A stretch of 63,056 nt of DNA, counting the filler, from Sluysia triapertura (lineage: Eukaryota): NCBI GenBank assembly GCA_046118255.1. It is 5 parts of 5 records of this genome, joined end to end, with 100 filler letters (N's around TTAATTAATTAA, not from the genome) between each part and the next. Parts side by side here need not be neighbours in the genome. Positions count along the whole stretch, not along the records: positions 1 to 14,174 come from JBJNIA010004335.1; positions 14,275 to 26,510 come from JBJNIA010127186.1; positions 26,611 to 37,566 come from JBJNIA010190885.1; positions 37,667 to 52,165 come from JBJNIA010256852.1; positions 52,266 to 63,056 come from JBJNIA010193405.1. The stretch is one strand, 5' to 3'. Of this stretch, positions 760 to 52,409 are shown one piece after another. The position numbers were made by a program, and so were the translations under genes. A model generated the notes under the pieces. It was not told the DNA's origin, ran no database searches, and saw nothing but the letters and a program-made list of their open reading frames with translations. The first letter of the stretch is position 1; the number at the start of each line of letters is the position of its first letter.

Positions 760-1900
760 CAATAACAAACACATTAAAAATAATCCATTTAATACTTTCG
801 AACTCCTTATGTTATACTACACTTTAACAATTAATACCTAATATTTAATAACATTTATTCAATAATTTATTTGCTTAAACCTAATCACAATCATAAACTC
901 TTAACACAAACCACAAGTACATTTAATATAATTCCACAACACTAATAAATCTACTTGAAACGCATAAGATACATAATTCACATCTTCGAATCAATTATAA
1001 CGTCCCAAATGCACTATTCACCTATGCATAATCATGATCAACACAGTACAACACCAATAACATCAAAAAAATTAACAGAACAAAACATAGCATAATAACA
1101 TCTTAAATATGCGTATTGCAATTGTTCTTTTAGATTCATTAAATTACAACCCTCTCAATAAGCCTTTTAACCATGATATTTCAATACATAAATCTTGTTT
1201 TCAAATATAAACTTCAATCAATATCGAAGAATTTATTCTAACATTCTTTATTTCACTTCAAGACTCATATCAATTACTATATCTTCAAAGGTTAAATATA
1301 TTTCAATTTATCAATTCTTTCCAAACAATTCTTACTCAGTAATTTAGTTTCAAATACATTTTAATTCATTTTAACATGCTAAAACTTTTCAAGAATTTAA
1401 GGCAAATCGTATACAATTTTGAAGAATTCAATTTTATATAATGAAGTAACAACGATAACTCGAGCATAGTACACCCTGTTATCGTTGCAGTTTCATTCAG
1501 TTTTGTCAATTTTTATATTTTATTTTTATTCTTTATATGTTAAGAAGGTTTAATATTAAGAATAGGAAGATCGTGTAATTTTATTTAAAAGAGATTTATG
1601 CGGTTTTCTTATATTTATTTATTTTTGTTAATAATAATAATATTATTATTATCATTATTATTATTACCAATTATTAAATTAATTATTATAAAATTTTTAT
1701 AATTCAAAAATAGTTCAAAGAGTTGCTGCCATCGTCAGTATTGATACTGCTCGTCAAAATCTTCATTATTGTGTCAATACTGATGATGGTCAATCATCAG
1801 CAAAGCGTTTTGTATGCCAGATATAATTTTCTGGCCATCATCCAATCAGGACCGATTTTACTCATTTATCTTTTTTAAAGCCCTGATTGATGACCAACCA
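760..1900 (+). mobile_element. Structured promoter cassette, copy A (5' terminus eroded)
   Basis: C/A-rich arm shares motifs with other copies (TTCGAATCAATTA ~986; TTCATTAAATTACAACCCTCTCA ~1135). Hairpin 1440-1497. TATGTTAAGAAGG..AAGATCGTGTAATT..TTTATGC at 1536-1601. AAT/ATT hairpin. 20-bp stem 1728-1790. Inverted CCAATCAGG/CCTGATTG 1842-1889. Confidence 0.8.
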
Positions 1901-1995
1901 AAGCAAAAAATTAAATAGGAAAACAAAAAATAAAAATATCAACTAAAAACAATATAACGCGATATTATATGTGAATAATACAAAACGATAATCAT

Positions 1996-3470
1996 ATGAG
2001 TTCATTTAATAAATCCTTCTCAAATTATAGTCATGTAAACGACTTTTTACTAGATAAAAGTAAACAAAAAAATAAAGCACCTTTAAATGAATTTAAAAAA
2101 GCGATAATAAATGTTAGTGATGGTATTCGTCAAGTTTGATAATTTGGAATTTGAAAATTTGATAAACAATGCAGCTATACCTAATGAAAAATTAATGGAA
2201 AATAGCTTATTGAATTCTATAGACAGCTCGTTATCTAATTCACTCAGCGAAAATGTTTCATGTGAAGACGACGTACATAATTTGTGATTATATAATAAAT
2301 ATGCTCAATAATGTGTACAAACTTGATGGTAGAATACTTCATGAGTATGTGAACAATATTCAGAGGCTCTTATGTATAAATGCACATTTCAACGATGTAC
2401 CTAGATATGAACATTATAACATTCTATCGAATATATCATTAGACCATCATATTAATAAATGCCTCAAAATTGCATTTGATGAAAAGGAATTTAGCGATGA
2501 AATTAAAGTGATTATTGTCGTAGACGAAATTTCTAAGACTATTAAAGACTACAGATTAACTTTTTGTTATAATAAAAATGATTGCAGTATTAAAATACTG
2601 AGAATTAATAGTTATGATGTCTCGAAATTAAAATTATTAGTTAAAATTATTATTGATCATAGTAAAATGCTATTACAATATGAATTATTAGTAATGTTCC
2701 TTATCCTATGAGACACTCAAGAGAAGCTCACTTAGTTTTGTATAAAGAATTCGGATCATGTTACGAAGGTTTCGCTTCTTGACCTAATCAAGATTTATTG
2801 AATATGATGATGTAATTTTCCGAAGTATTCTTCTTGATGCATATGCGTCTTTTGACGTCTTGATTAAATTTTTCAATGTGGACACGAACAAACATAATAG
2901 AAGTTTGTCTACAAACTCTCCATTTCTTAATGATCTTATAAAAAAGTTGCTAAAAGATCAATAGAATTGTTGGATCAAAAAAATGAACCATATTATTTAG
3001 TAACATCCTCGTGTTGGGACGATCACGAGTTTTTGCAACAGTTAGATGTGTTAATGTACCTATTTAAAAGCAATGGTTCTCCGAATTTATTAAGTATTCA
3101 CAGTCCGATTGGAGATTCAAGATCAATCAATGAAGCTAATTCAATGTTCAGCTTTACTATAATTCATATTTCAAGTGGAGTTCTCGTTCATAAACATGGC
3201 TTGGTAATACAGTATCCGCCAATTCAAGAGTATGTGAAATCAATAAAAAATTCGCATTGTTTCCAATTGAAGTAACCACTTTCGGAACGGAAATCCATTA
3301 TTAACAATGTCTACGCTTTCAACTTAACTGTTCATTGGTAAATTTTAATCATTTGTATATAATTCATTGTTTTATTACCTTAATTTTTTAGATTACAATT
3401 AAGATACAAGGACTTACGAAATTCCGCGTCGTGCAGTATATATTTTGAAAGACTCTAGTTCAAAAATTTT
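1996..3470 (+). pseudogene. Disrupted cargo gene of unknown function downstream of cassette A
   Basis: ATG at 1996, ~100 nt after the CCAAT pair. Coding-like segments (ORFs 2253-2711 and 2967-3275) are broken by stops/frameshifts. Candidate GT-AG intron 3338-3391. No family recognised. Confidence 0.55.
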
Positions 3471-3529
3471 AACGATCCAAATTACATTTTTATATTTCAA
3501 TATATGTTCTATAAAATAGTTTGTTTAAT

Positions 3530-4130
3530 TTAAGGCAATTTCAAGTATCGAAAATCAAACTTAGTTTAATCCTAAGAATGTATTATCCTATAACGTTAAA
3601 AATAGAATTTACATTAAATAAGCATAAAGATTTAAACTCCAGAAGTACGACTTTTAATAACACAACAAATTTAGGAATTTATACAAAAATTAAGCCTATT
3701 TGGAAAGTAGGTCAAATAGTAACAATACGCAATGGTTATCCGACTTACAAACACAACTTCTACCCAAAATGCTGTCTGACATTAAAAACAAAATCCAAAA
3801 ATACGAAGGAAGTTTCATGTAACACCTTTTCTTAAAGAAATACCTATAAAAGCGACGGTGGAATCCAAAATCATAATTATAATTTATAAATTCTTGCACT
3901 AAGAAACACTTGTATATCCCTTTGAAATTATAAAACAATTCGGAAACCAAAATGAATATGTCTTTAAGTATAAAAATTTATAAAGAATCCACAGTGATAA
4001 TAAGTTAACTGATGGGTTATGCACCTTTATGTATCCAAACAGATCCTGCAGAATGTTAAATTACTGGAAGATTATAAAATATTTAAGAAAAGGCAATTGC
4101 TTTCTATTTCAAAAATATTATAGTAAATGA
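3530..4130 (+). mobile_element. Decayed L2/CR1-type LINE ORF2 3' fragment
   Basis: HVTPFLKE..PIKA..E.KIIIIIYKFLH at ~3816-3900, matching the cleaner copy at 37476-37566; TTNLGIY upstream. Confidence 0.7.
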
Positions 4131-4382
4131 TTTATTTTAACCGTTTTTGAGTACTTATTTTGGTACAATATAAATTAATGTATCGGAATTCCTAGTAAAA
4201 TGTCTCGGGTTTGACGTCTCAATCTATTTTCCTTATTACTAATTTATATATGAGGGTTACTATTAAGATCATCTATATATTTAGGTTTCTCTGATACATT
4301 ATCATTATCGTTTCCCAGAGTATTAACATTTTCAAGTATTTTGACATATTTTCCATTAATTGTTTCATAAAATAATGTAGAC

Positions 4383-50755: not shown

Positions 50756-50987
50756 ATCAATTATAGTTAATCAAAATCAATAAAGCAAAGTGATATACAA
50801 AAAAACGTAATTTATTATAAAAATCAATTTAAAGTAATAAACAACAATATATTGTGATAAATAAATAAAAGAAACGGCAGAATTGAGTTTAGGCATAAGT
50901 CTATTTAAGAAACAATTTCCAATTTTATAAATCTAAGATATTAGAAATCATTTAAATAATACTCATTTGCAGTAATATAAATAAAAC

Positions 50988-51800
50988 ATGTTTTCATTAT
51001 CGACAACTTCTTCGACTACTGCTACCTACCACTAGTATAATTTCGAGAAATGAAAATAACCATAACATGTTGAATATGTTAAACAATGATTCTTTAATCA
51101 TGCTACAGAAATGTTTTTCAACAAACCACAATGAAATCATTGAAAGTAATTTTAATTCAAATCATAAAGCAACAACGAATAAACTACCTAACATTCAAGT
51201 TCTTTGTAACGATTTTAACTCAAATGAAAAGGCAAATAACATTAACAAAGAATATATTATGGATACTCATAATTATATGGCTTCTTAAATTAACGCGTTT
51301 TCTCCTGCAACTATTCAACCATTTAAAGAATCGCTAAAATATCCAGATTCTCATGCACCTAGTAATATGTTACCAATTTCCGACAAGGATATCCTTTGCA
51401 ACAAGAACAACAAAGATCTAATGCGTTTCAGGAATCTGACGATTTCTTCAAAAAATTCTTAATCATAACAAATCTACATCATTTACAAATTTTATTAGAA
51501 TTAATGCATGCAATAATGAATTTCCAATCATTATGAACGTAAACGAAAGACCAAATCTAAAGTATGTAATGTGTCCATACCATACCACGTCAACTAACCT
51601 ATGTACTCAGTACGGCGAATTTTGCTCGTTTGCTCATGGAATGAAAGAACTACTACCACTTCCGACAAATTCTAATGATAAGTGTTCTGATATATTTTGC
51701 TTGATTATATGTTATAAATTTTTATAAATTTTATTTCCATTTTTGTGAAATTTTTATTTTTATTATAGATGTCTCGTACAACAAATCCGTAGCATCTCCA
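50988..51800 (+). pseudogene. CCCH (TIS11-like) zinc-finger cargo pseudogene
   Basis: KYVMCPYHTTSTNLCTQYGEFCSFAHGMKEL (C-x9-C-x6-C-x3-H) at ~51559-51653; upstream N/S-rich coding segments with stops and frameshifts. Confidence 0.75.
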
Positions 51801-52041
51801 AGAAATTATATAACCTACAATTTTATGTTTTTTGTTTCAAATAAAATTTTAGTAATTCTGATGATCCGTGTTTTTATTTTTTTCATTAAATATTCGAATA
51901 GTTACCATATTGAAGCAAAGTTTTTATTAAAAATTTAAAAATTAAATGTAATGACAATATAATAATTCTACATAAAGATCATAAAGAAAATTACAACCAC
52001 TAAACGCTCTACTAGGGTTTTAATAAAGTAACGTGTTAATA

Positions 52042-52165
52042 CAGTGATTCTCAACCAATGTGCCGCGAAATTCTAAAAATGTGCCGCAGAATTTTAGTCT
52101 TATGATTATGTTCACATTTGTATTCTATTCTAGTCCAAATATAAATGAAATAATGAAAAAACGTC
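52042..52165 (+). mobile_element. hAT (Charlie-like) terminal fragment
   Basis: CAGTGATTCTCAACC terminus followed by repeated TGTGCCGC. Confidence 0.55.
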
Positions 52166-52265
52166 NNNNNNNNNNNNNNNNNNNNNNNNNNNNNNNNNNN
52201 NNNNNNNNNTTAATTAATTAANNNNNNNNNNNNNNNNNNNNNNNNNNNNNNNNNNNNNNNNNNNN
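52166..52265. other. Artificial gap linker
   Basis: N44-TTAATTAATTAA-N44. Confidence 0.97.
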
Positions 52266-52409
52266 GTGTTGTTTATAATGATTGAGTTGATGTAGTTCGA
52301 TAGTAAGAAGTGTGATTGTTTTAGAAATTATGTTTTAGTGAAATTTTGAGATGTGGATGTTGAGTATAATGTTTTAATAAATTTTAACTTGTGAGTGTTG
52401 ACCACTACA
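52266..52409 (-). mobile_element. Cassette 5' terminus, copy I (rest in the gap)
   Basis: GTTGACCACTACA at 52397-52409, preceded by G/T-rich sequence. Confidence 0.75.

Follow-up and report, generated by a model that had tools for sequence, protein, structure and literature searches.

A gene-capturing repeat family with integrase-type ends in Sluysia triapertura: possible giant solo long terminal repeats with a coding unit inside

Integrases of the retroviral type create tips of the TGT...ACA type and short target-site duplications (TSDs). Among long terminal repeats (LTRs), the consensus recognized by the integrase, TGTTRNR...YNYAACA, is conserved over about 7 bp (PMC3601003). LTRs measure 1.9–6.5 kb in Ogre and are also long in planarian Burro elements (PMC6431247), and small-RNA genes lie inside the LTRs of Helenus and Cassandra (PMC10886601). 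We analysed a repeat family in a 63,056-nt stretch of DNA from Sluysia triapertura (assembly GCA_046118255.1; hereafter the window), which joins parts of five records. An earlier account made from the sequence alone, the sequence-only reading, had described about nine copies (A to I) of a cassette of about 1 kb, each heading a different captured gene. The family is real and abundant, and consists of gene-capturing mobile units with integrase-type ends. With a probability of roughly 45%, the multi-copy units of at least 2 kb are giant solo LTRs that contain a gene with exchangeable cargo. The cassette is just the left part of the unit, which also includes the cargo and a right end. The proposed constant region with a variable gene was therefore upheld in a wider form, as a unit in which the left end is constant, the coding middle varies and the right end is shared in part.

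Mobility and boundaries were established for one copy, element G, using the contigs of one public run (X1), with which two of the five gap-free pieces of the window were compared. X1 joints skip G from 30306 to 32515 (two contigs) and from 30265 to 32522, and the stretch skipped by the former ends exactly on the terminal CA of G (32513–32514). The pentamer TTCTC stands on both sides of G in the window and once in the related contigs, being counted as single there because the letters between the two sides of the joint end like the left flank in the window. The joints and the single TTCTC therefore identify G as a 2,171-bp insertion of one linear unit with a 5-bp duplication, and the search for an end plus TSD gave a match without mismatches at 32514. 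G is nested in E-type sequence, directly after a splice-donor-like site of the related contigs. Its tips, TGTGGTG and CACAACA, agree with the LTR integrase consensus at 6/7 and 7/7 positions, and TGTNR termini are found at all six intact left ends as well as at the right end of G. The inverted match between the tips covers six of the first seven bases and is broken thereafter. We found no convincing long terminal inverted repeat (TIR) in G, where local inverted scores slightly above those of shuffles (reached by 4, 12 and 3 of 200) occurred in AT-rich DNA, and no LTR pair, the direct end-versus-end score being reached by 121, 16 and 11 of 200 shuffles at 150, 300 and 500 nt. Thus, the distal end, the TSD and the empty site, all of which the sequence-only reading had proposed to look for, were found for G alone, and its option of a non-autonomous gene-capturing mobile element was supported by the duplication, the empty site, the nesting and the multi-copy cargos.

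The X1 contigs also revealed the extent of repetition. Summed depth, which is not equivalent to copy number, was 7–21 for single-copy contigs, compared with 3,500–13,700 over the arms of C, D and G, 1,300–3,500 over the C cargo and 900–2,900 over the G cargo. Within E, it was 1,800–5,600 over the TRMT10-like part and 140–250 over the PANK4 part. Tens of distinct contigs per site cover the arms and cargos of C, E and G. Arms and cargos are therefore repeated together, and each cargo thus marks an amplified subfamily rather than a one-off capture.

The constant left end was compared among the copies with microsatellites masked and with random window pieces as the standard for likeness. Six copies have the common terminus TGT(G/A)GTGG that the sequence-only reading had noticed, exactly in B (4383), C (14880) and D (22998) on the plus strand and in H (37830) and I (52409) on the minus strand, and with a deviating last base in G (30344). 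The seven matches in the window (six sites and one palindromic overlap) compare with 0.22 expected, and none of 100 shuffled sequences reached seven. H and I start with TGTA, and B, C, D and G with TGTG. The arms are skewed to C over G as described, by 0.5–0.7 in A, B, C, D and G and by 0.33 in F. In pairwise alignments the copies are 58–67% alike; 13 of the 21 masked pairs score at least 25 points over the median random window piece, five (A–B, B–F, B–E, D–E and F–E) are close to that median, and F–G and E–G lie under it. The inverted CCAAT pair, found in A to F, was substantiated: over seven sequences it forms a consensus stem of 11 pairs, 7 of which show changes on both sides. Two further claims about this module stood in part. 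The long stem-loop is present in A, B, C and F (z −4.0 to −5.7), weak in E (−1.7) and absent from D (+0.4) and G. Only B, C and D have all parts in the fixed order; the TGT end is missing from A and F and falls in a gap in E, G lacks both the stem and the CCAAT block, and H and I are stubs of 144–164 nt beside gaps. A left end of A at 434 would produce an AATTT duplication, but it ranked 1052 of 6430 and was rejected. A G/T-skewed stretch at 47200–47700 resembles a reversed arm and gave no match to the arm profile.

The sequence-only reading saw no shared right end among cargos that it took to be mutually unrelated and all disabled, and on these points our results differ. G closes at 32514, and the alignments lead us, with moderate confidence, to regard the tail of A, ending at 3667, as related to that of G. 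Their score of 162 was reached by none of 384 random window pieces, the pair is the best among 24 intron-plus-AACA candidates, and CACAACA follows the predicted acceptor at a distance of 265 nt in G and 276 nt in A. The tail of F is weakly like that of G (4 of 387 random pieces reach its score), and the predicted intron is kept in A, F and G. AATAAA is present in the G tail, as it frequently is in AT-rich DNA anyway. A right end of C at 18502 was unsupported among the tail candidates. At 32799 and 52041, the tails of E and F are interrupted by starts that resemble hAT-type ends. As for the cargos, F and G have a CCCH finger in common, the two being reciprocal best matches across six frames with a score of 55 versus at most 40 otherwise, and E retains an open ATG frame of 405 codons.

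The names given to the cargos were partly sustained. The PANK4 match is strong and the CCCH finger of F has a Pfam E-value of 6e-7, whereas the BTB match in B (about 0.003) and the TRMT10 match in E (0.54, the second of two matches) are weak. The best matches of the PANK4 piece are animal proteins of molluscs, annelids and nematodes, mostly at 50–59% identity; the piece has one frameshift and no intron-sized gap over about 153 codons. These matches place the host among animals and at no finer level, and a myxozoan host, considered at first, was dropped. The frame at 28485–29075, tried as the front of the PANK4 domain, was unsupported. Homology searches gave no relatives of the 405-codon frame of E or of the C cargo, AlphaFold run without an alignment modelled the E frame at a predicted local distance difference test score (pLDDT) of 29, and the A cargo had no useful PDB match. 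CCCH remnants seen by eye in A, B, C and E ranked 78, 185, 540 and 78 of 630 tiles and were dropped as unsupported. The claimed spacing between the CCAAT pair and a same-strand ATG is weak by itself: starting from random sites, the first ATG comes after a median of 40 nt, and the frames that begin at the ATGs of B (+88) and E (+85) have just 3 and 6 codons. What remains is that an ATG frame of at least 40 codons begins within 250 nt after four of the six modules (A, C, D and E), compared with 21% at random. Likewise, the 2-kb stretches past the cassettes make up 22% of the window and contain the starts of 17 of the 28 open reading frames (ORFs) of at least 100 residues. Of these 17, 14 share the strand of the cassette, in a count that includes several overlapping and hence non-independent ORFs. 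The host genes named earlier, FCP1-type NIF, profilin and tropomyosin, are present in the window and have no cassette at any of them; a homology search with the FCP1 piece gave no relatives.

The solo LTR is the known category that fits all structural features of G, though with a protein-coding unit inside. Solo LTRs of the Ty3/Gypsy or BEL type share with G the TG...CA tips of about 7 bp and a target duplication of 4–6 bp (PMC3601003). Fast divergence into subfamilies is common to them and the present family, and so might be the combination of promoter-like and poly(A)-like parts in one unit. They differ from the units described here, which have between their tips a coding gene with a predicted intron and a captured middle that varies. 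The Helenus, Cassandra and Ajax terminal-repeat retrotransposons in miniature also hold gene-derived sequence inside the LTR, which persists in solo LTRs with TSDs, but their piece is a fixed tRNA or 5S sequence in a total of 311–1263 bp, whereas here it is coding, variable and part of more than 2 kb; animal Helenus has 4-bp TSDs, compared with 5 bp in G (PMC10886601). In LTR-mediated retrocopies and maize Bs1, host coding pieces, sometimes of several genes, are captured and re-amplified as well, with the cargo between two LTRs, while G has no repeated ends (PMC5131818). The DA/Xiao composite LTR-like duplicons resemble G in that their chimeric core travelled as a single unit and has TSDs, by an unclear mechanism, and are unlike it in their 30–300 kb, their two direct HERV-E copies as flanks and their TSDs of 4–9 bp (PMC2700803).

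If the units are solo LTRs, the linear insertion of G with its 5-bp duplication would be the work of a retroviral-type integrase, an enzyme established to make such tips and scars. For the parent element, the promoter function and the capture route, we infer the following. The parent would have had an internal region between two such long LTRs, and recombination between the LTRs would have left one copy with the duplication intact. The inverted CCAAT pair could be the promoter of a whole, probably transcribed gene inside the unit, whose last parts would be the CCCH exon seen in F and G, a short intron and a 3' tail. Judged from sequence, the promoter-like block upstream and the AATAAA-bearing tail downstream seem to fit LTR anatomy. 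The PANK4 piece without an intron-sized gap and the high repetition of arms and cargos likewise speak for this reading. Template switching or gap repair might bring PANK4, BTB-like and TRMT10-like host pieces into the middle, and every cargo version so produced would be amplified and then decay. As a possible refinement, the retroelement might be read on the minus strand. U5 would then correspond to the G/T-rich arm, and U3 would contain the cargo gene in antisense orientation, an arrangement that would account for the survival of the intron through reverse transcription.

Several observations weigh against the interpretation as solo LTRs. A YNYAACA motif with a matching 5-mer arises by chance at 3% of random starts, and G itself has a second such match at 30514. 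Because chance matches of this kind occur, the closure of G rests on the X1 joints, one of which independently chose 32514. The sides of the joints are short (25 letters in the two-contig joint) and were matched at 80% likeness, a pattern that is often repeat-derived. For B, C, D, H and I, the search for an end plus TSD found no plausible exact match, so that one of the six intact left ends was closed. None of the six is preceded by a polypurine tract or has a TGG primer site on the other strand, and the Pfam scan of 126 window frames revealed no integrase, reverse transcriptase or transposase domain. A paired or full-length parent was not seen in the window, and retrotransposition would be expected to remove an intron on the sense strand. 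When the tail of G was slid along the full window, several very AT-rich windows outscored A. The hairpins show no clear strand preference, the minus strand having the lower energy in 9 of 13, often by less than 1 kcal. Finally, seven of the nine copies are oriented one way, for which the model offers no reason.

Some of these points would be expected from a TIR-less DNA transposon, the main and a serious rival, although on balance we consider it less likely. The units would then be non-autonomous elements moved by an integrase-like transposase of the Ginger/TDD type, with 7-bp inverted tips, asymmetric long ends and Pack-type gene capture at the DNA level. Such movement would agree with the intron predicted in A, F and G, with the missing primer sites and purine tracts at all six ends, and with G, which moved, or at least persists, without the promoter block. 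Ginger1, Ginger2/TDD and GingerRoot likewise have TGTNR ends and integrase-type insertion, and differ from G in TIRs of at least 40 bp compared with 7 bp (PMC2836005, PMC6839031). The single 5-bp TSD is as in TDD-4/5 and unlike the 4-bp TSDs of Ginger1/2 in animals, and the 40–270-bp TIRs of Ginger1/2 have no counterpart in G (PMC2836005). GingerRoot carries gene fragments, but its 100–150-bp TIRs and 6-bp TSDs are again not those of G (PMC6839031). No transposase came from the frames scanned in Pfam. We ranked the solo LTR first because the TIR test was negative and the tips match the LTR consensus.

There is a slim chance that the units are Pack-MULEs or foldback elements, in which the 1-kb cassette would be a long TIR, and H and I opposite arms. 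MULEs have TSDs of about 9 bp, in disagreement with the 5 bp of G, and long TIRs at both ends were not found. H and I do face G and F, and they differ from B, C, D and G in TGTA versus TGTG. However, G ends at 32514 with no opposite arm, which rules out H and I as right-hand TIRs of G. The flanks of H and I match no left flank, and both stubs lie across gaps. Pairing F with I gave one TSD candidate, AAAAT at 48885, at chance level. Capture of gene pieces in invertebrates (bioRxiv 10.64898/2026.02.11.705288) speaks for Pack-MULEs, as does the captured host gene fragment present here, the PANK4 piece, whose parental copy was not seen. Slimmer still is the chance of a rolling-circle element with one fixed end and read-through capture of downstream DNA, which would account for the hairpin-rich end, the variable downstream length, the mostly single orientation and the failure to close most copies. 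Helitrons and Helentrons leave no TSD and have TC...CTRR or T-run ends, whereas G has a 5-bp TSD, an empty site, a defined second end and TGT...ACA ends. A multipartite virus with integrated segments, a set of circles or a delivery system like that of polydnaviruses, options the sequence-only reading had drawn from the constant region ahead of variable genes, are hardly credible in view of the linear insertion of G with a TSD, cargos that are decayed host-type genes, a search of viral contigs that was made with the C cargo alone and gave no relative, and a window in which nothing shows the host to be a parasite.

The window, about 75% AT, contains further repeats and gene pieces. Its four gaps (at 14175, 26511, 37567 and 52166) each consist of 44 N, a 12-nt all-frame stop linker and 44 N; adjacency of the parts across them is unproven because a cassette copy abuts three of the four. 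Rfam and ARAGORN gave no matches in the window. A repeat of about 165 nt with a tRNA core and TGT...ACA-type ends occurs at 46332–46482, 53155–53319 and 57326–57486, the last copy with a 4-bp direct repeat on both sides, a TSD length unlike that of G; these repeats look like Helenus-type solo LTRs (PMC10886601). Pieces at 37445–37566 and 3800–4160 resemble the C-terminus of the protein of an L2/CR1 long interspersed nuclear element, and the summed depth in X1 over 37225–37566 is 806,000. A repeat without a name at 32887–33345 has a summed depth of up to 390,000, and a repeated element at 20220–20590 that ends in ACA has 5,362 in 112 contigs. A decayed LTR-retrotransposon-like region at 9210–12250, apparently unrelated to the cassette, shows by eye a primer-site-like TGG stretch at about 9497 and a gag-like frame at 9851, with no Pfam match. 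At 35130–35670 (depth 285–595) there are broken pieces that, by eye, look like a Na+/H+ exchanger; no cassette lies directly upstream of them. The coordinates of the family are collected in Table 1.

Table 1. Parts of the repeat family in the window (positions along the whole stretch)
Feature	Start	End	Strand	Evidence
Element G, closed unit of 2,171 bp, TGTGGTG...CACAACA	30344	32514	+	X1 joints, end-plus-TSD match, tips
TSD of G, left copy, TTCTC	30339	30343	+	flank comparison
TSD of G, right copy, TTCTC	32515	32519	+	flank comparison; single in empty-site contigs
A left module, no TGT end	760	1900	+	alignment, motif and stem analyses
B left module, complete	4383	5340	+	end motif, alignment, stem
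C left module, complete	14880	16012	+	end motif, alignment, stem, X1 contigs
D left module	22998	23966	+	motif, alignment; one single-depth X1 contig spans the flank junction
E left module, inner half (outer half in gap), two CCAAT pairs	26611	27130	+	alignment, stem
F left module, no TGT end	49915	50755	+	alignment, motif, stem
H terminal stub of left end, cut by gap	37667	37830	-	motif, alignment
I terminal stub of left end, cut by gap	52266	52409	-	motif, alignment
A cargo, broken frames, no known family	1996	3337	+	frame and Pfam scans
B cargo, broken BTB-like piece and further open frame	5426	6319	+	Pfam, E-value 0.0034
C cargo, frameshifted protein of no known family, highly repeated in X1	16128	17454	+	19–49 contigs per listed site
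D frame, 88-codon ATG frame 94 nt past the D CCAAT pair, no family found	24059	24325	+	frame and Pfam scans
E cargo 1, open 405-codon ATG frame, weak TRMT10-like stretch at about 27455–27772	27338	28555	+	frame scan, weak match
E cargo 2, PANK4 C-terminal part of about 153 codons (phosphatase domain)	29048	29507	+	strong match
F cargo with tail: N-rich frames, broken; CCCH finger 51560–51649, predicted intron 51682–51768, right end not fixed	50956	52040	+	Pfam, tail analyses
G cargo: coding region of N/D-rich repeats, broken, followed by degenerate CCCH finger 31974–32057	30960	32186	+	zf-CCCH_UNK, E-value 0.039
A right module: predicted 54-nt intron 3338–3391, tail, CACAACA	3338	3667	+	best partner of G tail; moderate support
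G right module: predicted 63-nt GT-AG intron 32187–32249, short last exon, AT-rich tail, CACAACA	32187	32514	+	intron from splice signals only

In the described systems, gene capture takes place between TIRs (Pack-MULE, GingerRoot), in Helitrons or between two LTRs. A unit that has integrase tips alone, brings its own putative promoter and can exchange its coding middle matches none of the known capture systems exactly, and an open-access literature search found no description of the family or of a variable coding gene inside an LTR. If this holds genome-wide, the defined right end and the TSD length would make the family a testable class. Tentatively, the LTR might be a complete expression vector with a fixed promoter, an exchangeable captured middle, a shared RNA-binding CCCH exon, an intron and a 3' end, by which thousands of ready-to-express chimeric genes would be seeded in many subfamilies, some of them still open as in E with its 405 codons. 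If this were true, exon shuffling would take place inside an LTR, or inside a new class of TIR-less integrase elements, and, if genome-wide, it would supply an animal with new chimeric RNA-binding genes in large numbers.

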